From a virus (taxonomy: Duplodnaviria; Heunggongvirae; Uroviricota; Caudoviricetes): a stretch of 6,635 bases of DNA. Shown here in pieces: positions 1 through 6,635 of this stretch. Below the pieces are notes generated by a model, which made no database searches, was not told where the DNA came from, and saw only the letters and a program-made list of their open reading frames with translations. The stretch lies in the IMG/VR virus record IMGVR_UViG_2574180227_000018, one strand, 5' to 3'. Position 1 is the stretch's first letter; each line of letters starts with the position of its first letter. The position numbers and the translations under genes are program-made.

Positions 1-1053
1 TTAAACTTCGTTTAACGCTTCCTGTATTCTTCGACCAATCCATTTCATGACCGGTACAGGCATTGAATTTCCAATGGCCTTATAACGATGAGCTGGAGAT
101 GAATTTTTCCATGGAATATCTGTATATCCATCGGGAAAACCTTGTAGCCTCTCGCATTCGGTTGGCGTCAACCTACGAACCCTTGAATATGGCGCTCTTT
201 CAACTATGAGCCCACCAGACATAGTCATGTCCTGGTTAGTTGTTCCGTTATAGCCAGCTATTACTGTGCCTGTTCGTTTTGGCAATGCTTCAAGGCAATA
301 TCGGTGCAATTTTCCTTCAATGCCTTGATCAAGAAGGGATTCGGATTTTTTCTTCTTTCCGTAATAGTTTTTATCGCCCTGCGACACAGGCGGGAACTCA
401 AATAATACCTTTCCGGGATCGAGCCTTTTTCCAGCACTTGCCACAACAAACACTCTTCTGCGAGCCTGGGCGACTCCGAAATATTGGGCATCAAGTACTC
501 GCCAGGCGACGATACGCGATGGTCCAGACACAACACCAGCGTTTGCCCATCTTTTCCTTGCTGGCTGTAATGCGCAACCTGCTCCGGCCAGCGCACCAAG
601 AAAATGACCGAATGCATTGTCATGGCTACTTAAAACTCCTGTGACGTTTTCCCATACGATTATTGAGGGGGATTTATTGAGCGATGCCCGAACGGTATCT
701 ATCTGATTCGCCAGTTCAACAAAAGACAGTGTTAACTGCCCCCGTGGATCTGAAAGGCCTTTTCGTTTGCCTGACATACTGAATGCCTGACACGGAGTTC
801 CACCTACAAGAATATCTGGTGCTTCAATAAGCCCATCCCTGATACGAGGCGCAAGCAAAGCCATATCACCAAGATTTGGTATATGGGGCCAGCGATATGA
901 AAGAAGTGTTGACGGGAAGTCCTCTATTTCACTGAACCATCTGGCTTTCCAGCCAAGATTGCTCCAGGCTACTGTCGCAGCTTCAATACCACTGCATACT
1001 GAACCATAGGTTAGTGACTTATCAGACTGAAAGTAATGTTTCTTGTTCCCCAC
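1..1053 (-). CDS. DNA (cytosine-5)-methyltransferase, phage-type, complete (GTG start at 1053, stop codon at 1-3)
   Basis: 350-aa ORF carrying C5-MTase motifs in canonical order: catalytic PCQ (GGTPCQAFS), ENV (VWENVTG), QxRxR (QARRRVFVV), and C-terminal RRLTPTECERLQGFPDGYT and AIGNSMPVPV. Gly-rich N-terminal motif I-like stretch (VCSGIEAA). SD-like AAGGAAA lies 7 nt upstream of the GTG. Short target-recognition region between motifs VIII and IX. Confidence 0.9.
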   Translation of the reverse strand: MGNKKHYFQSDKSLTYGSVCSGIEAATVAWSNLGWKARWFSEIEDFPSTLLSYRWPHIPNLGDMALLAPRIRDGLIEAPDILVGGTPCQAFSMSGKRKGLSDPRGQLTLSFVELANQIDTVRASLNKSPSIIVWENVTGVLSSHDNAFGHFLGALAGAGCALQPARKRWANAGVVSGPSRIVAWRVLDAQYFGVAQARRRVFVVASAGKRLDPGKVLFEFPPVSQGDKNYYGKKKKSESLLDQGIEGKLHRYCLEALPKRTGTVIAGYNGTTNQDMTMSGGLIVERAPYSRVRRLTPTECERLQGFPDGYTDIPWKNSSPAHRYKAIGNSMPVPVMKWIGRRIQEALNEV

Positions 1054-1207
1054 GGCAGGATTTCCTTGTGTATGTGGGGTGCTCTGTGGCGCTCTGAGAT
1101 GTGATTTGATTGAGGGTTTTGCAGCGCGGACATTTTACTTCCAGATAACTGAAACTGGCCCGTGCCAGTAGCTTATTGCAGTGTCGGCACCGTATGTTTC
1201 GATACAT
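1022..1207 (-). CDS. com: Com-like C4 zinc-finger protein (phage Mu Com family translational activator); overlaps the methyltransferase start by 32 nt
   Basis: Translation MYRNIRCRHCNKLLARASFSYLEVKCPRCKTLNQI...EHPTYTRKSC has two CxxC knuckles with Mu Com-like spacing and flanking residues (IRCxxCNKLL, CPRCK, EHPT), as I recall the Mu Com sequence. ATG at 1207 is preceded by AGGAGG with 10-nt spacing; the ORF track's longer form (to 1252) starts on a non-ATG codon with no SD. Its 3' end overlaps the downstream DNA-modification gene, as com does with mom. Confidence 0.7.
   Translation of the reverse strand: MYRNIRCRHCNKLLARASFSYLEVKCPRCKTLNQITSQSATEHPTYTRKSCRGEQETLLSV
1048..1079 (-). promoter_or_regulatory. 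mRNA hairpin sequestering the methyltransferase GTG start; SD lies in the loop
   Basis: Inverted repeat ccccac (1048-1053) and gtgggg (1074-1079). In the minus-strand mRNA the 6-bp GC-rich stem pairs CCCCAC with GUGGGG, which is the GTG start plus the next codon. The 20-nt loop contains the AAGGAAA SD. Confidence 0.35.
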
Positions 1208-1616
1208 GGCCGCATAACCTCCTGCTTTGTTGTTGATGCCTTTCTCATGCAATCGATCGACAAAAACGATCGATTCGGTTTGTTTAATTGATACAACAAA
1301 TAGATTGAAAAGTCATCAACAATGATTCAGGGCGGTGATTATTTACTTAAAGAAAACGAAGAGTTAGGTGGTGAAAACGATCATAAAATGATCATTTTAT
1401 TGACTTTTTATACAGTGAAGGTAGGATTGTGCGTATATGTAGTATGTTTCAAATCAATGGGATACTACATACATAAAGGGCGACCCAGATAGCGCGAACT
1501 ATTCTGGGCCGATTTAGACAATTTTGCATCAATGCTTTACTTCGAGCTCGTGGCGTATCCTATGATATTCCCCGGTCTCCTGTAAAGCAGAGATGCATAA
1601 AAAGGAGATCTTTATC
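1208..1616. promoter_or_regulatory. Divergent intergenic regulatory region containing four GATC (Dam) sites in two close pairs
   Basis: AT-rich 409-bp region between divergent com (minus) and the small + strand gene. GATC at 1255-1258 and 1268-1271 sit in repeated TCGATCGA and CGATCGAT contexts; GATC at 1379-1382 and 1390-1393 sit in the inverted repeat GATCATAAAATGATCA. TTGACT at 1400-1405 is a possible -35 for the + strand gene. Promoters not confidently placed. Confidence 0.3.
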
Positions 1617-1787
1617 ATGGATAAAGAGCCTGTTTACCCTGCCTGTAAGACTCCCTTACAGCTCATCTATCGCCGTTCTCGATCTCAAAATGGCAAGACA
1701 TACAAACCAAAAAATGCTTCCTGTTTCAGGATGCTGATATGCCCTGCCTGTTCTCCCCAGAGGGAAAATACACAAAACGTGCATTAA
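1617..1787 (+). CDS. Hypothetical small Cys-containing protein (56 aa from ATG 1617; ORF track gives 64 aa from 1593)
   Basis: AAAGGAG SD at 1601-1607, 9 nt before ATG 1617. Product MDKEPVYPACKTPLQLIYRRSRSQNGKTYKPKNASCFRMLICPACSP has a CPxC knuckle plus two more Cys and is basic. No family recognised. Confidence 0.45.
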   Translation: MDKEPVYPACKTPLQLIYRRSRSQNGKTYKPKNASCFRMLICPACSPQRENTQNVH

Positions 1788-1796
1788 CAAATTCCC

Positions 1797-1816
1797 CCGG
1801 CAGGGAAACCTGCCGG
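1797..1816. terminator. Hairpin between convergent stop codons (8-bp stem, GAAA loop)
   Basis: ccggcagg gaaa cctgccgg lies between the + gene stop (1785-1787) and the minus gene stop (1826-1828). Flanking U-tracts are weak on both strands. Confidence 0.4.
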
Positions 1817-1825
1817 TCGGTATTG

Positions 1826-2071
1826 TTACATCATAGTACCGTCAGTTCCGGGCTGAACCGGCTCTGGTTGCTCTACGGGTTGAGGAGCATTTTCCGTGCT
1901 GTTTTCAGCCGGAGAACGGCCAACCATTCGGGCCAGCACTTCATCAACATATGCGTCGATTTGTGCCTCAAAATCCTTGCGAACCTGCGCCTTCAGCACG
2001 CGGTTCACTTCTTCAGAATAAAGTGCCTGTTTGACAAGCTCTTCAGTAACCGTGCCTTTAATCTCTGGCAT
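1826..2071 (-). CDS. Hypothetical protein, 81 aa (helical N-terminal half, Pro/Glu/Gln-rich acidic tail)
   Basis: Strong SD AAGGAG 7 nt upstream of ATG 2071. Protein-like composition. Starts 35 bp downstream of the 60-aa gene, so likely co-transcribed with it. Confidence 0.6.
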   Translation of the reverse strand: MPEIKGTVTEELVKQALYSEEVNRVLKAQVRKDFEAQIDAYVDEVLARMVGRSPAENSTENAPQPVEQPEPVQPGTDGTMM

Positions 2072-2106
2072 GAATATTCTCCTTTTGCAGGTATATTGCC
2101 CCGTTA

Positions 2107-2289
2107 TCAGAGCGGGGTCGGGTCGTTTGGGGATGATGGTGCCTGTGCTGTTTTACTGAGCTTTTCGGCTGCTGCGTCATCAATTTTGCGGCGAATATAA
2201 TTTCTGATGACCTTATAACCGCCGCTCACCAGATATAACGCACTGACCACAGCGCAGAAATAAAGCAGCATTGTATGAACGAATGTCAT
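2107..2289 (-). CDS. Hypothetical small membrane protein, 60 aa (one N-terminal transmembrane helix, charged C-terminal tail)
   Basis: SD TAAGG upstream of ATG 2289. Hydrophobic segment LLYFCAVVSALYLVSGG followed by KVIRNYIRRK. Confidence 0.5.
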   Translation of the reverse strand: MTFVHTMLLYFCAVVSALYLVSGGYKVIRNYIRRKIDDAAAEKLSKTAQAPSSPNDPTPL

Positions 2290-2403: not shown

Positions 2404-2440
2404 TCCCGCCAGCCATATCATGACCGGCGGGATTTTTTTT
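2404..2440 (+). terminator. Intrinsic terminator-like hairpin, + strand orientation (7-bp GC stem, T8 tract)
   Basis: tcccgcc, a 15-nt loop, ggcggga, then tttttttt (2433-2440). On the minus strand the hairpin sits just after the esterase stop but has no following U-tract. Confidence 0.4.
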
Positions 2441-4478
2441 ATTCTGTTACCGCTTTTTTCACTTCCACCACAATGCTGTCAATCAGCACCGGGTAAGTTG
2501 CATTTTTGGTGATATCCGTTACGCGGAGTTTGTCCACCGGGAAAGTTCCTACTGGTGACTGCGTCAGGGTAAACGCGGCACCATCCTGACCATCAATAAC
2601 CGGAATAACCTGAAGGCTGTTATTTCCTGCAAAACGGAAGGCCAGCGTATGCCATTCATTATCAAATACACCAAAGGTTCCCAGTTTCTGGTTATTTGTT
2701 GCCACTTTTGCATTGTGGTGCATCACATTCAGGTCTTTTGCGTCTGTCTGGATGTAGAACGATGCCAGCAGATTATTCCCTGCATCCCCTGTCAGGGTGA
2801 CACCCTGCGGCAGAGAGGAAACCGGCCAGTAAAGCGCCATGACATACTGGTTTGCCACCAGGTCGCCAGGTACTTTAAAACGACAACTGATTAAACCACC
2901 ATTTTTCAGCAGTTCAGCACCAGTACCGGCATCATGATCCAGATACCAGGATGATTTACCTGTTTCCTTGGTCAGTTTCATTGCCTTACCACCTGTGCCT
3001 CCTGCATCACTGATAATTTCAGCTTTACCGCCAGCCGGCTCCCAGCCCTGGGCTTTCAGATTTCCTTCTGACTCACTGACACGGTAAGACAGCAGTGTTG
3101 TGGTTACTGCTTCAGTTTCTGAAGGTGACGGCACTGGTGCTTCAGTTTCAGAAGATGGAACATCGGCTTTTACTGTGGTTCGCCCTGCATGAGTCAGAAC
3201 AGCCGTGGCCAGACGGTCGGAAATAATCCCACGACGTGCCCATGAACTGAAATGGCTGGCCCGGCCCGCAGATGTCCAGGTGGCGGCACTGTTACGCCAC
3301 GTTGAGCCGTAATAACCAATGGATTCAATATCCGGGTCTTCTGTCGGATTGTTGGTGGGTACATTCGCGCCATTTTCATCTGTCATTAATGGGACGAAAT
3401 GAATGTTTTTATCTGTTTTATTTTTGTAGCCGTCATAGATTGCCTGGTATGCCTGTTCGTTTTTCTGTTTCCAGAAATACGTGGTATCGCCACAAATCCA
3501 CGGAACGCCAGCAGCACTGCCACCGGTACACTGTTCCGCCTGTTCAGCCAAGTCTGCGCGGAATTTTTCCACCATCGCCAGAAACAGCGCGGAATGCTCC
3601 GTCGGCTTCGCATCAATATCAAACTCGCCCTGCATCCACACCACAGCAAGCAGGCGGTTTTTCGGGTTCTTCGCCAGTGCCGCTTTTGTCCGGCTGATTA
3701 AGTCCTTATACAGCGGCTTATCCACACCCCAGCGGGCTGAGTCCTCTGAAGCACCCGTGCTGTCACTGTACGTGCCGTCAGCACCCGCCGTGAATGCAGA
3801 ACCACCACGGCAGCAGGGAACCAGCAGAATCCCCGCATCTGCCGGAATAAACGGCAGCAGTTTTTTGGCAATGTGAAGCCCCTGACCCACGGTGCCATAT
3901 TGCCCTTTAGCCACATCCGCTTTCGGGTGATTTTTTCCACTCATATCCTGCACATCATGCAGACAGTGGTCGGCCAGAATGATGTCGTTATACTGACAGG
4001 CTTTACCTCCCGGCGTGACTGTACTGCGACGGGCTAACTGCATAATACGCGGTTCGGGGTGGTCATATGTCTCCGGCAGCGGCAGACCTTCACCGTAGGC
4101 CATCCCGTTTGACTGACCAGCAAGAACCACCACGTAATACCAGGAAGGGGAGCTGGAAGCAGTTTCATTTCCTGACGGACGGGTATGTGTTTCAGCATTA
4201 TCCCAGTCTGACGGTTCAGCAGTACCGGCAACATCAGCACTTAACGGAATGACAGCACCAATACCCGCACCGGTAATTTCCACGCTCGGATCACCGGATA
4301 CTGGCCTTACCCACAGGCAATCCCGTGTATTAAAACTGATGAGACAGTCAGCAAATGTCATTCCTCCTTTTGTTTCGGCCGGAGGAAAGGGAGCCTCAAG
4401 AAATGCCGCTGTACCACCGGAAACTTTAACAGTAAAGTTTCCGGGCATTGATGATAGTTGAACCCATTTGGACGTCAT
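2439..4478 (-). CDS. SGNH/SASA-family carbohydrate esterase (sialate O-acetylesterase-like, prophage NanS-p-like architecture), 679 aa, three domains
   Basis: GQSN catalytic-serine motif in VVVLAGQSNGMAYGEG and a downstream WMQGEFD block, typical of sialate O-acetylesterase/SASA domains. About 110 aa of N-terminal domain, a Ser/Pro/Glu/Thr linker with tandem SETEA repeats, and about 250 aa of C-terminal Gly/Thr-rich, probably beta-rich domain. No signal peptide. ATG at 4478. Confidence 0.8.
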   Translation of the reverse strand: MTSKWVQLSSMPGNFTVKVSGGTAAFLEAPFPPAETKGGMTFADCLISFNTRDCLWVRPVSGDPSVEITGAGIGAVIPLSADVAGTAEPSDWDNAETHTRPSGNETASSSPSWYYVVVLAGQSNGMAYGEGLPLPETYDHPEPRIMQLARRSTVTPGGKACQYNDIILADHCLHDVQDMSGKNHPKADVAKGQYGTVGQGLHIAKKLLPFIPADAGILLVPCCRGGSAFTAGADGTYSDSTGASEDSARWGVDKPLYKDLISRTKAALAKNPKNRLLAVVWMQGEFDIDAKPTEHSALFLAMVEKFRADLAEQAEQCTGGSAAGVPWICGDTTYFWKQKNEQAYQAIYDGYKNKTDKNIHFVPLMTDENGANVPTNNPTEDPDIESIGYYGSTWRNSAATWTSAGRASHFSSWARRGIISDRLATAVLTHAGRTTVKADVPSSETEAPVPSPSETEAVTTTLLSYRVSESEGNLKAQGWEPAGGKAEIISDAGGTGGKAMKLTKETGKSSWYLDHDAGTGAELLKNGGLISCRFKVPGDLVANQYVMALYWPVSSLPQGVTLTGDAGNNLLASFYIQTDAKDLNVMHHNAKVATNNQKLGTFGVFDNEWHTLAFRFAGNNSLQVIPVIDGQDGAAFTLTQSPVGTFPVDKLRVTDITKNATYPVLIDSIVVEVKKAVTE

Positions 4479-4577: not shown

Positions 4578-5138
4578 TTATTTTTCCGAAACGCTCGCAG
4601 GATAATAACGATAAAGGGTTGAAAGGCCGATATCAAAAATAAGTGCCACCTGTCTTCGGCTGACACCCCCGGCCAGTAAACGCCCGACCTGCTCGTATTG
4701 TTCCTGCGTGAGACGACGGGGTCTGCCGCCGGTTCGTCCCCTTTCACGGGCAGCAGCAAGACCAGCCCGTGTCCGTTCGACAATCAATTCACGCTCCATT
4801 TCTGCCAGCGCACCCATTATGTGAAAAAAGAAGCGCCCCATGGGGGTTGACGTATCAATGTTGTCAGTAAGACTACGAAAATTTATCCCCTGTTGCTGTA
4901 ATTCATCTGTCAGCGCAACAAGGTGGCGCATACTGCGCCCCAGCCTGTCCAGTTTCCAGACCATCAGTGTGTCGCCGGGTTTTAGTTTCTTCAGTGCCCG
5001 CTTCAGTCCCGGCCGCTGCGTCGTTTTACCACTCATTTTGTCTTCAAAAATCTGCTCACATCCTGCACATTCCAGCGCATTTCTTTGTAAACCTGTGTTC
5101 TGGTCATTTGTTGATACGCGTATATAGCCAATCAGCAT
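4578..5138 (-). CDS. pin: Serine recombinase, DNA invertase of the Pin/Gin/Hin/Cin family, 186 aa
   Basis: N-terminus MLIGYIRVSTNDQNTGLQ carries the catalytic Ser motif. Resolvase-type catalytic domain (VWKLDRLGRS, MGALAEMERELI) and C-terminal HTH (GGVSRRQVALIFDIGLSTLYRY). SD AAGGAAGG 7 nt upstream of the ATG. Immediately adjacent to an inverted-repeat-bounded segment. Confidence 0.95.
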   Translation of the reverse strand: MLIGYIRVSTNDQNTGLQRNALECAGCEQIFEDKMSGKTTQRPGLKRALKKLKPGDTLMVWKLDRLGRSMRHLVALTDELQQQGINFRSLTDNIDTSTPMGRFFFHIMGALAEMERELIVERTRAGLAAARERGRTGGRPRRLTQEQYEQVGRLLAGGVSRRQVALIFDIGLSTLYRYYPASVSEK

Positions 5139-5192
5139 GTATTTACCTTCCTTAAAAAGAGGTGGAAATGCTTTTTAAAGCAGATATACGGC

Positions 5193-5218
5193 ATCCCTGA
5201 AACCTCGGTTTACGGGAA
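5193..5218. other. Left inversion crossover site (gix/pix-like: two 12-bp half-sites around central TC at 5205-5206)
   Basis: atccctgaaacc tc ggtttacgggaa is an imperfect palindrome resembling the gix/hix core (AAACC-TC-GGTTT). An identical 26-bp copy lies inverted at the right edge. Confidence 0.7.
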
Positions 5219-5226
5219 ACGGTAAA
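5201..5226. repeat. Inverted repeat, left arm (26 bp, perfect match to reverse complement of 6610-6635)
   Basis: aacctcggtttacgggaaacggtaaa compared by eye with the reverse complement of the last 26 bases of the window. Confidence 0.85.
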
Positions 5227-5587
5227 CAGGGCGGCGAATGCCCTGCCATCGAACGGAACGGCCGTTGCCGCGAACAGGCTGGCAAATGCCCACACAATTA
5301 ATGGTGTTCCCTTTGACGGAACGCAGGATATCAACATTACCTCCGGTATGACCGAAGCTGCTGCTGATAACAAATACGTTCGCAACGTTCAGCTTGGTGC
5401 CCAGAGTTACCATTCACCCGGAGGTAATGAAATGTCCTGGAGTTATGGCGCGCCTTCCGGTTGTATGCTTTCAGGTATTAACGTGCAGGAGACCGGGAGA
5501 AATTCAGCCGATAATATCGGAGGCGTTTATTACCGTCCGGTGCAGATATATATCGGTAATGCCTGGCGCACAGTTTCATCCGTCTGA
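5201..5587 (+). CDS. Silent alternative tail-fiber C-terminal cassette (Sv'-like); no start of its own in this orientation
   Basis: Open frame begins right after a TGA at 5198-5200 and runs through the recombination site to the stop at 5585-5587. The encoded NLGLRETVNRAANALPSNGTAVAANRLA...INGVPFDGTQDINITSGM... parallels the minus-strand fiber C-terminus (NLGLRETVNKAADALPSGGTAVAANRLA...INGVPFDGTRDINITSGM...), and the ends are similar (VYYRPVQIYIGNAW versus VYYRQIQYCINGNW). Confidence 0.7.
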   Translation, partial: NLGLRETVNRAANALPSNGTAVAANRLANAHTINGVPFDGTQDINITSGMTEAAADNKYVRNVQLGAQSYHSPGGNEMSWSYGAPSGCMLSGINVQETGRNSADNIGGVYYRPVQIYIGNAWRTVSSV

Positions 5588-5595
5588 TTAAAGGA

Positions 5596-5618
5596 AAAGG
5601 GTGCGATAAGCACCCTTT
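5596..5618. terminator. Bidirectional terminator hairpin between the convergent Sv' cassette and tfa (9-bp stem, 5-nt loop)
   Basis: aaagggtgc gataa gcacccttt. On the minus strand it directly follows the tfa stop and is followed by a UUUUCCUUU tract. Confidence 0.6.
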
Positions 5619-5621
5619 ACG

Positions 5622-6164
5622 TTATTCAGGCTTCTCCGGCCATTTAATGTCGTCAAATTCAGCTTTGTTTTTAATCGCTGGTAGTTCCATTTTTTTCACC
5701 TGACTGATGTATGCCATCCATCGGGTAAGTGCGGCTCTGTCTTCATCACTGATGGTGCCCAGCTGTAATTCTGTTCTCCAGTCATTAATTTTTTCATATG
5801 CCTGATTAAGATATGACTGGCGCATTGCTTCCAGTTTTCTTGCGTAGTTAACCGGAATACGGGAGATCACGCCATTATCAAACTTCCAGTTACCCGAAAT
5901 ATCAGCACCTTCAGGGAGTTCGTCGACTTCAACCACAGAGAACCCCGCAGGATACAGCGCCGAAGCGTCCTGTGATATTGAGCAGATAATGCCGCTGTCA
6001 GGTGTTATACAAAGTTTATATTTTTTTGTGAATAATGGCAGGGACTCGTAGAAATCCTTACCATCTTCACTCTGAAAATACTGTACATCATTACCATAGA
6101 GGGTATTTTCCGGGTAATATCGTTTAACATTAATCAGTTGCATAAACATCACCATGTGAATCAA
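5622..6164 (-). CDS. tfa: Tail fiber assembly protein (Tfa chaperone; P2 G / Mu U / lambda Tfa family); probable start at ATG 6143
   Basis: C-terminal region LGTISDEDRAALTRWMAYISQV...DIKWPEKPE resembles the conserved Tfa C-terminus (lambda Tfa ends ...PDIEWPAVP), with SEDGKDFYE and ADISGNWKFDNGVI blocks upstream. The ORF-track start at 6164 is a TTG without SD; ATG 6143 has a GGTGA SD. Confidence 0.85.
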   Translation of the reverse strand: MIHMVMFMQLINVKRYYPENTLYGNDVQYFQSEDGKDFYESLPLFTKKYKLCITPDSGIICSISQDASALYPAGFSVVEVDELPEGADISGNWKFDNGVISRIPVNYARKLEAMRQSYLNQAYEKINDWRTELQLGTISDEDRAALTRWMAYISQVKKMELPAIKNKAEFDDIKWPEKPE

Positions 6165-6263
6165 TGATAAAAACAGGAATAATACTATCGCTATATACGG
6201 ACAGGGGTTGTCTGAGATAACGCATATATCAGGCGCTGCCTGCCGTACGCCATGAGCCGTTAA

Positions 6264-6635
6264 TTAAATACTTGCAGCGGATACCCAATTCCCATTAATA
6301 CAATATTGTATCTGTCTGTAATAAACACGGTCATCACCACCACGCATTTCCCAGTCTCCGTCAGTCTTAAAACCGGTAATCACATTTCCTGATGACAGGG
6401 AGTAATTATATTCCAGTACGCCGCTTAATGCCTGCGCTCCCAGTCTTACCCCTGTAACATAACGCTGATTGGCCGTTGATTCCGGCATTCCTGACGTAAT
6501 GTTTATATCCCGCGTCCCGTCGAAAGGAACACCATTAATATTTCTTGGGGTGGCGAGTCTGTTTGCTGCCACGGCGGTTCCCCCCGATGGCAGGGCATCA
6601 GCGGCCTTATTTACCGTTTCCCGTAAACCGAGGTT
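6264..6635 (-). CDS. Tail fiber protein, C-terminal variable part (Sv-like), 5'-truncated by the window edge; currently expressed orientation
   Basis: The reading frame is open from the last base of the window through the inverted repeat to the stop at 6264-6266. The ORF-track GTG at 6572 is internal. Homologous to the + strand cassette. Confidence 0.8.
   Translation of the reverse strand, partial: NLGLRETVNKAADALPSGGTAVAANRLATPRNINGVPFDGTRDINITSGMPESTANQRYVTGVRLGAQALSGVLEYNYSLSSGNVITGFKTDGDWEMRGGDDRVYYRQIQYCINGNWVSAASI
6610..6635. repeat. Inverted repeat, right arm (26 bp), part of the right inversion site, which continues past the window edge
   Basis: Reverse complement equals 5201-5226. 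The predicted crossover dinucleotide is at 6630-6631, so the outer half-site lies beyond the window. Confidence 0.85.

Follow-up and report, generated by a model that had tools for sequence, protein, structure and literature searches.

The two genes and the families they belong to

The stretch of DNA analysed here (6,635 nt, IMG/VR record IMGVR_UViG_2574180227_000018, Caudoviricetes; hereafter the window) carries on its minus strand the right end of a Mu-like prophage, as judged by gene order, Pfam matches and RefSeq annotation. Downstream of an esterase gene lies a pair of small genes (positions 1826-2289), which an earlier interpretation made from the letters alone (the sequence-only reading) had singled out as an undescribed two-gene cassette. 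The two genes, DUF1378 and DUF826, are already catalogued and widespread phage genes of unknown function, and the evolutionary home of the pair is the lysis cassette. A helper role in lysis is more likely than a role as a new defence or toxin-antitoxin module, because the relatives of these genes are found among the lysis genes of phages.

The first gene of the pair (2107-2289, minus strand) starts with ATG and encodes a membrane protein of 60 aa. Its ribosome-binding region, read from the sequence as AAAGGTAAGG at 2294-2303 on the same strand, contains AAAGG/AAGG. The product matches Pfam DUF1378 (PF07125) over the entire model (positions 1-59 of 59; E=1.2e-38, 131.5 bits against a gathering cutoff of 25) as well as phrog_494 (E=3.5e-34), and RefSeq labels it 'DUF1378 family protein' (WP_000144787.1). 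After a spacer of 35 nt follows the second gene (1826-2071, minus strand), likewise with an ATG start and an AAGGAG ribosome-binding site that can be read at 2079-2084 on the minus strand. It encodes an acidic protein of 81 aa, which matches Pfam DUF826 (PF05696) in residues 1-52 (E=3.2e-15, 56.5 bits against a gathering cutoff of 25) and phrog_311 in residues 1-80 (E=5.7e-30), and whose RefSeq label is 'DUF826 domain-containing protein' (WP_032182795.1). Two tightly linked open reading frames (ORFs) with Shine-Dalgarno-like motifs, 35 nt apart, are present as the sequence-only reading had described them; its view that no family could be assigned is superseded by the Pfam families and PHROGs 494 and 311, all four of which are labelled as being of unknown function.

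Both genes are under purifying selection. Pairwise Nei-Gojobori comparisons with diverged alleles, made where synonymous divergence (dS) is unsaturated, gave ratios of nonsynonymous to synonymous substitution (dN/dS) of 0.11-0.32 for DUF1378 and 0.09-0.29 for DUF826. The synonymous-biased substitution on which the sequence-only reading had staked the coding status of the pair is accordingly found (dN/dS about 0.09-0.33 overall) and, together with Pfam scores far over the gathering cutoffs, it establishes both ORFs as real protein-coding genes rather than chance occurrences.

The DUF1378 protein has one hydrophobic segment (residues 3-21, mean Kyte-Doolittle value 2.0), which is followed by a basic stretch comprising K26, R29, R33, R34 and K35, in agreement with the single-pass membrane protein with a basic juxtamembrane segment that had been foreseen. 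Residues 1-5 carry no charge, residues 25-40 carry a net charge of +3, and AlphaFold2 models a single continuous helix from residue 2 to 48. The predicted topology is N-out/C-in and single-pass, with a minimal periplasmic part. The protein carries the conserved motif LYLVSGGYKxIRNYxRRKIDDAA and bears the hallmarks of the family, namely a length of about 50-90 aa, a hydrophobic helix at the N-terminus with (S/A)GG(Y/W) as its end, and a basic IRxY motif after it. Across the DUF1378 alignments (A1, A4, A7), L9, F11, L20 and G24 are invariant, and G23 and R29 nearly so. No holin family in Pfam, NCBIfam or PHROGs matched the protein. A search of PDB sequences with the DUF1378 profile returned only a sub-threshold match to TRAP-gamma (E=0.009) in a membrane helix, and matches to the pilin chaperone TraQ (E about 0.04-0.16), far under the cutoffs, were rejected.

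The DUF826 protein, with an isoelectric point of 4.4, ends in an acidic Pro/Glu-rich tail with six prolines and a terminal TMM, and is predicted to be cytoplasmic. AlphaFold2 models helices at residues 10-17 and 20-50 and a disordered tail thereafter, as the description of a helical protein with a disordered acidic tail had implied. Its profile met nothing meaningful among PDB sequences, and Foldseek with the model found nothing at E<=0.001 among viral and PDB structures. The 'head completion protein' label that DUF826 carries in PhiR phage records is unsupported by Pfam and PHROGs and is regarded here as an annotation artefact. Between residues 29-56 and the cytoplasmic helix of DUF1378, hhalign gave a weak alignment (E=0.001, probability 20%), a hint that DUF826 might have been derived from that helix. 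In a lambdoid locus of E. coli A34 (L008, 3683-3862), the DUF826 position holds a 59-aa ORF that has no detectable homology to DUF826 and resembles it in having a helical N-terminus and an acidic Pro-rich tail, here ending in PMMP. A hydrophobic or Met-rich C-terminal tip also recurs among DUF826 variants (TMM, MMM, TML, TLL). The remote homology and structure checks that had been proposed for the pair thus delivered single-protein AlphaFold2 models, but no meaningful match in PDB, Foldseek, PADLOC or NCBIfam searches.

The esterase-linked block and the wider family in lysis cassettes

Directly upstream of the pair, the gene at 2439-4478 (minus strand) encodes a NanS-p-like sialate O-acetylesterase of 679 aa with SASA and DUF6645 domains (PF03629, PF20350; phrog_143). 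It is the first gene of a three-gene block on one strand, in which the esterase lies directly upstream and DUF826 directly downstream of DUF1378, and the same order recurs in phage VT2-Sakai and about 90 distinct viral loci. These loci come from IMG/VR, which was scanned with DUF1378 and esterase alignments, the fetched loci then being searched with custom-built profiles; a first profile scan of genome contigs had given no confirmed relatives. Among esterase-seeded loci with enough DNA, DUF1378 adjoins the esterase downstream in 78 of 79 and DUF826 is present in 72 of 73. When the neighbourhood analysis proposed by the sequence-only reading is run from DUF1378, an esterase stands directly upstream in 97 of 149 distinct neighbourhoods (some 48 others are linked to spanins), and DUF826 is also present in 91 of the 93 esterase-DUF1378 neighbourhoods that have enough downstream DNA. 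Instead of a stand-alone two-gene cassette, the pair is part of a conserved block that is common to Shiga toxin (Stx) phages. Of 90 blocks with all three genes, 88 have both small ORFs intact.

The block occupies two kinds of position: between gin and com in Mu-like prophages, and between stx and the pinholin gene S in Stx and other lambdoid phages. After the 97 esterase-DUF1378 neighbourhoods comes an S21-type holin gene in 59 cases and com in 22. VT2-Sakai reads stx2A, stx2B, nanS-p, DUF1378, DUF826, S, R (its old annotation fuses both small ORFs as 'orf43'), an order that is repeated in other lambdoid phages, and other Mu-like prophages read gin, esterase, DUF1378, DUF826, com. The window represents this Mu-like variant, of which at least 22 distinct loci are known; what comes after its block is a hairpin, then a convergent ORF and com, and not directly the holin gene S and the endolysin gene R. 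One paper notes that some annotations of Stx2a phages show DUF1378 and DUF826 between nanS-p and S, and says nothing further about them (PMC10462455), and a literature search on locus tags and old ORF names (L0106/L0107, ECs4994/4995, ECs1208) found nothing.

The 464-bp stretch with the pair matches 464 of 5426 complete E. coli genomes, 196 of them at a coverage of at least 80%. In about 200 complete E. coli genomes, the proteins that RefSeq annotates are the same as those of the window or nearly so. Prophage Sp18 of O157:H7 Sakai carries the genes as ECs_4994 and ECs_4995, with 98.3% DNA identity over 1826-2289 and with gin, esterase and com as neighbours; with these and many other RefSeq annotations, the module cannot be called undescribed. 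Sp18 differs from the window in that mom follows com, where the window has a C5 cytosine methyltransferase gene, and in that ECs_4996, frameshifted in the window, is intact. The resemblance to the Stx phages 933W and VT2-Sakai is more distant. These share with the window the three families, their order, a similar spacing, and an A-tract and hairpin past the esterase stop; their DUF826 likewise consists of a helical core and an acidic tail with MM at the C-terminus, and their DUF1378 is about 52% identical to the window protein. They differ in that the block is followed by the lysis genes S-R-Rz, where the window, part of a transposable Mu-like prophage, has a hairpin and com. The N-terminal ~95 residues of the esterase are also unrelated to the Stx-phage version. 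Residues 1-95 (window 4194-4478) cannot be aligned with the N-terminus of Stx-phage NanS-p, which points to a backbone-specific N-terminal domain; lambdoid versions align from residue 96-108 on, and the catalytic and DUF6645 parts are 70-80% identical.

Such tight linkage invites the explanation that the pair serves the esterase, either by helping this signal-less enzyme to reach its extracellular substrate (through membrane targeting, or holin-like export without full lysis) or by regulating it, which would account for three genes moving together. In addition to the adjacency counts given above, the linkage holds across three unrelated backbones (lambdoid, Mu-like and a phage with P2-like tail genes), it is kept while the proteins diverge to about 50-60% identity, and DUF826 is almost confined to loci containing the esterase. 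A helper of the esterase is nevertheless an unlikely function for the pair. About one third of the distinct DUF1378 neighbourhoods have no esterase and lie in lysis cassettes; of 10 loci with a disrupted esterase gene, 9 keep the pair intact, although this is about what gene length alone predicts; and neither protein is similar to known export components, the TraQ and TRAP-gamma matches being sub-threshold.

The pair could also have its function in lambdoid phages and be no more than a passenger in the Mu-like prophage, which it would have entered on the same fragment as the esterase. In lambdoid phages, the block boundary coincides with the holin gene. Furthermore, in a Mu-like locus of E. 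coli STEC799 (L005, 5001-5461) the DUF826 allele is close to that of the window (98.8% DNA identity), the 59-aa DUF1378 allele is very different (dN 0.39), and the esterase allele differs as well. This mixture implies that recombination broke the sequence within the 35-nt spacer separating DUF1378 from DUF826, and through such exchange with a lambdoid-type DUF1378 the purifying selection could have acted elsewhere. What makes passive carriage very unlikely is that both ORFs are intact in all 23 distinct Mu-like blocks examined, and that Mu-like lineages separated by a dS of 0.15-0.9 keep dN/dS at 0.09-0.32 (the window against L006 and L004).

Beyond the esterase-linked block, DUF1378 is a small family, as a profile search of 1.84 billion representative proteins recovered only 27 clusters. 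Divergent members (50-91 aa) keep the (S/A)GG(Y/W)xxIRxY junction motif and are found in Klebsiella/Raoultella, Pantoea, Kosakonia, Phytobacter and Mangrovibacter; all organism names that could be recovered for DUF1378 fall within Enterobacterales. The divergent loci have no esterase. Here, DUF1378 is the last gene of a cassette of holin, endolysin and i-/o-spanin genes, and about 48 distinct neighbourhoods are of this spanin-linked type, often without DUF826. The DUF1378 ATG often overlaps the i-spanin stop by 4 nt (for instance, a spanin gene at 3456-4004 and DUF1378 at 4001-4261). Variations on this theme include the GenBank phage EKP1 (class II holin, lysozyme, Rz, a 74-aa ORF, DUF1378) and locus L178, where DUF1378 lies directly upstream of the i-spanin gene. 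The cassettes that carry DUF1378 have their own separate holin, except for L175, which has none annotated.

Two loci connect the lysis cassettes with the three-gene block. L176 encodes Q, holin, lysozyme, DUF7940, spanin, DUF1378, a 68-aa DUF826 homologue (E=9e-15) and the small terminase subunit, in that order, so that the pair, and not DUF1378 alone, predates the association with the esterase. The locus L215/L091 (IMGVR_UViG_2671181127_000013, with P2-like tail and baseplate genes) reads lysozyme, i-spanin, o-spanin, nanS-p, DUF1378, with no DUF826, and the esterase start overlaps the o-spanin stop. It looks like an intermediate in which an esterase gene was inserted between the spanin gene and DUF1378.

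The endolysins encoded nearby are largely of the signal-anchor-release (SAR) type, called from a basic N-terminus followed by a hydrophobic segment rich in Ala, Gly, Ser and Leu. Such enzymes are found in 42 of 50 spanin-linked cassettes, the other 8 having soluble ones, and all endolysins found in lambdoid three-gene loci, as well as that of Sp18, are SAR endolysins. The association of DUF1378 with them is strong, though not absolute. In some DUF1378 cassettes, a small protein with two transmembrane segments, DUF7940, is encoded between endolysin and spanin (L175 3186-3449; L176 3271-3477; L187, L193, L203). The endolysins in all five are soluble; the holin is of the lambda S type in L176, L187, L193 and L203, and none is annotated in L175. 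DUF7940 is a candidate for another uncharacterised lysis accessory gene.

The usual position of DUF1378 relatives at the end of late lysis operons, often without DUF826, is unlike the arrangement of toxin-antitoxin genes or of defence genes expressed in lysogens. It is hardly credible that DUF1378 is a membrane toxin and acidic DUF826 its antitoxin, even though the genes are small and adjacent and encode a basic membrane peptide and an acidic protein. About 48 neighbourhoods have DUF1378 and no DUF826, the two genes have exchanged alleles independently of each other (L005), no toxin-antitoxin family in Pfam, NCBIfam or PADLOC was matched, and the gene order and absent dedicated promoter would be atypical.

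Transcription signals and neighbouring genes

Several potential signals surround the pair in the window. A GC-rich, terminator-like hairpin, CCGGCAGG/CCUGCCGG, lies 10 nt past the DUF826 stop (1797-1816, minus strand; -21.6 kcal/mol, z=-4.1) and is the likely transcript end, separating the pair from com and the convergent plus-strand ORF. Directly past the esterase stop are an A8 tract and a 13-bp hairpin (2404-2440, minus strand; -23.2 kcal/mol, z=-4.9). This element has no U tract on the sense strand, and its plus-strand reading, a hairpin followed by T8, is a canonical intrinsic terminator; VT2-Sakai has the same layout past nanS-p in a different sequence (L002 4862-4905; -22.6 kcal/mol, z=-5.5). 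On the plus strand, the spacer between the esterase gene and DUF1378 also holds a small hairpin with a T run behind it (2359-2374), which is terminator-like and folds weakly (-8.1 kcal/mol, z=-2.1). The two small genes are in this way bracketed by signals (2359-2440 and 1797-1816) that would stop antisense transcription. No sigma-70-like promoter site was seen ahead of the pair on the minus strand. Given a spacer without promoter consensus and a post-esterase hairpin without a sense U tract, we infer that the pair shares a transcript with the esterase. From what is known of Mu, this transcription could originate from gin or the tail-fibre late operon.

These signals also bear on whether the pair protects the lysogen, as a superinfection-exclusion or abortive-infection module made of a membrane protein and a soluble partner. 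The pair lies in accessory DNA absent from Mu, and small membrane proteins commonly serve as exclusion factors. Mu gin is expressed in lysogens, so that a block downstream of gin could be expressed there as well. Nothing in the present analysis, however, supports the exclusion, abortive-infection or toxin-antitoxin roles that the sequence-only reading had put forward: PADLOC matched neither protein, the only hit of the 81-aa one being PbeC at E=0.052. In addition, the pair has no promoter-like site ahead of it, in lambdoid phages it lies within a Q-dependent late operon between stx and S, and distant DUF1378 genes overlap the spanin stop inside lysis operons. Protection of the lysogen is distinctly unlikely in light of this evidence.

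The surroundings of the block are those of a Mu-like right end with additions. On the minus strand, genes for tail fibres and their assembly, which include an invertible segment (about 5150-6635), are followed by a Gin-type invertase gene (4578-5138). In phage Mu, gin and com are only 95 nt apart. No genes lie there, as the sequence-only reading had noted in calling this a cargo position, and everything from the esterase gene through the small pair to the convergent ORF is therefore extra DNA. The convergent ORF (1322-1787, plus strand) is split into pieces of 56 and 64 aa and is frameshifted according to RefSeq; its intact Sakai homologue ECs_4996 (154 aa) belongs to no family and has a weak match to a Trm112p-like zinc ribbon (E=0.035). 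Within positions 1-1252, com (1022-1252, minus strand) is kept, and its 3' end is overlapped by a gene for a C5 cytosine DNA methyltransferase of 350 aa (1-1053, minus strand; PF00145, E=2e-42) in place of mom. The latter is present in Sakai Sp18 and most relatives, and similarity to prophages carrying it ends at about position 1039. The arrangement of com with a C5 methyltransferase is common to several other E. coli genomes and looks as if one DNA-modification enzyme had been exchanged for another while the Com translational control region in front of it was kept.

A possible accessory role in lysis

The reading that we favour, as likelier than any rival though with slightly less than even odds, is that DUF1378 assists lysis from the inner membrane as an accessory factor and that DUF826 is its acidic cytoplasmic partner. 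The N-terminal helix would hold DUF1378 in the inner membrane, with the N-terminus outside and the basic C-terminal helix in the cytoplasm, and the protein would act at the holin or endolysin-release step. DUF826 would then be the acidic cytoplasmic partner or modulator of DUF1378. The pair may have reached the Mu-like prophage together with the esterase, from a lambdoid late region, and in this prophage it would be transcribed with the esterase up to the hairpin at 1797-1816. Through an effect on lysis, it may adjust the release of the leaderless esterase.

Known accessory proteins offer models for such a factor. The releasin of phage Mu, gp25, is a protein of 99 aa with N-out/C-in topology that exposes about 3-4 residues to the periplasm and has a basic motif at the membrane boundary; its gene comes right after those of the spanins, and the SAR endolysin needs it in order to be released (PMC9239132). 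DUF1378 shares with it the small size, the N-terminal transmembrane helix, Gly-Gly near the cytoplasmic end of the helix and a basic motif thereafter. The two differ in the cytoplasmic domain, that of gp25 being 73 aa long and anionic and that of DUF1378 about 36 aa and net basic. The position downstream of spanins in phages with SAR endolysins, a few genes past the endolysin, is matched by distant DUF1378 members; in the window and in Sp18 the gene lies elsewhere. In Mu itself (L180 2025-2805, gp24-gp26), the order is spanin, gp24, the membrane releasin gp25, the small soluble gp26 and the small terminase subunit, to which L176 (4001-4525) offers a positional parallel in spanin, membrane DUF1378, small soluble DUF826 and small terminase subunit. 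Homology of DUF1378 with Mu releasin (DUF2730) was rejected: a comparison of the two alignments by hhalign (A7 against A6) gave a probability of 0.5% and E=0.12, and Pfam contained no DUF2730 match to the 60-aa protein at E<=1.

The closest functional analogue, judged by description and not by sequence, would be Lcc6 of the Shewanella phage LambdaSo. Lcc6 has 65 aa, crosses the membrane with residues 5-22 and ends in a cytoplasmic tail; its gene is remote from the lysis cassette, and the protein is harmless alone but required for lysis by pinholin and SAR endolysin (bioRxiv 10.1101/2024.01.23.576932). The DUF1378 protein of the window resembles it in architecture and in its displaced location: it is predicted to share a length near 65 aa, an N-terminal transmembrane segment, a cytoplasmic tail and an off-cassette gene in a phage with a SAR endolysin. 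As for DUF826, its size and location would fit a role like that of cytoplasmic antiholins, an analogy only, with no similarity of sequence or fold found. Such antiholins, T4 RIII and P1 LydB among them, are small soluble proteins that are encoded with the lysis genes and modulate a membrane lysis protein.

Several observations weigh against an accessory lysis factor. No experiment on DUF1378 or DUF826 was found in the literature. In this type of prophage, as exemplified by Sp18, the pair is about 25 kb from the lysis genes, and Sp18 already has a releasin homologue of its own, ECs_4966 (DUF2730, E=7e-20), to whose family DUF1378 has no detectable homology (hhalign probability 0.5%, as above). 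Soluble endolysins in 8 of the 50 spanin-linked cassettes mean that a SAR-specific role cannot be general. The flanks of lysis cassettes are known hot spots for accessory genes, and position alone is consequently no proof of function. The near-obligate linkage in E. coli could point to an esterase-related function instead, and the mixed alleles of L005 indicate that DUF1378 and DUF826 are not tightly allele-matched.

A bolder proposal, which we consider doubtful, is that DUF1378 (with DUF826 in E. coli phages) constitutes an unrecognised fifth component of the lysis system of Enterobacterales phages, releasin- or Lcc6-like, acting with the pinholin and the SAR endolysin. The genes themselves are not new, being catalogued domains in hundreds of E. 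coli prophages, including those of reference O157:H7 strains; what is found here is a known, uncharacterised phage module and not a new candidate for defence or a toxin-antitoxin system. In essentially all Stx phages sampled, its place is between stx/nanS-p on one side and the lysis genes on the other. If it tunes lysis, the pair would affect the amount of Shiga toxin and esterase freed by an induced lysogen, and were it indeed a fifth component, it would co-determine the timing and extent of lysis in Stx phages and hence the release of Shiga toxin and NanS-p.

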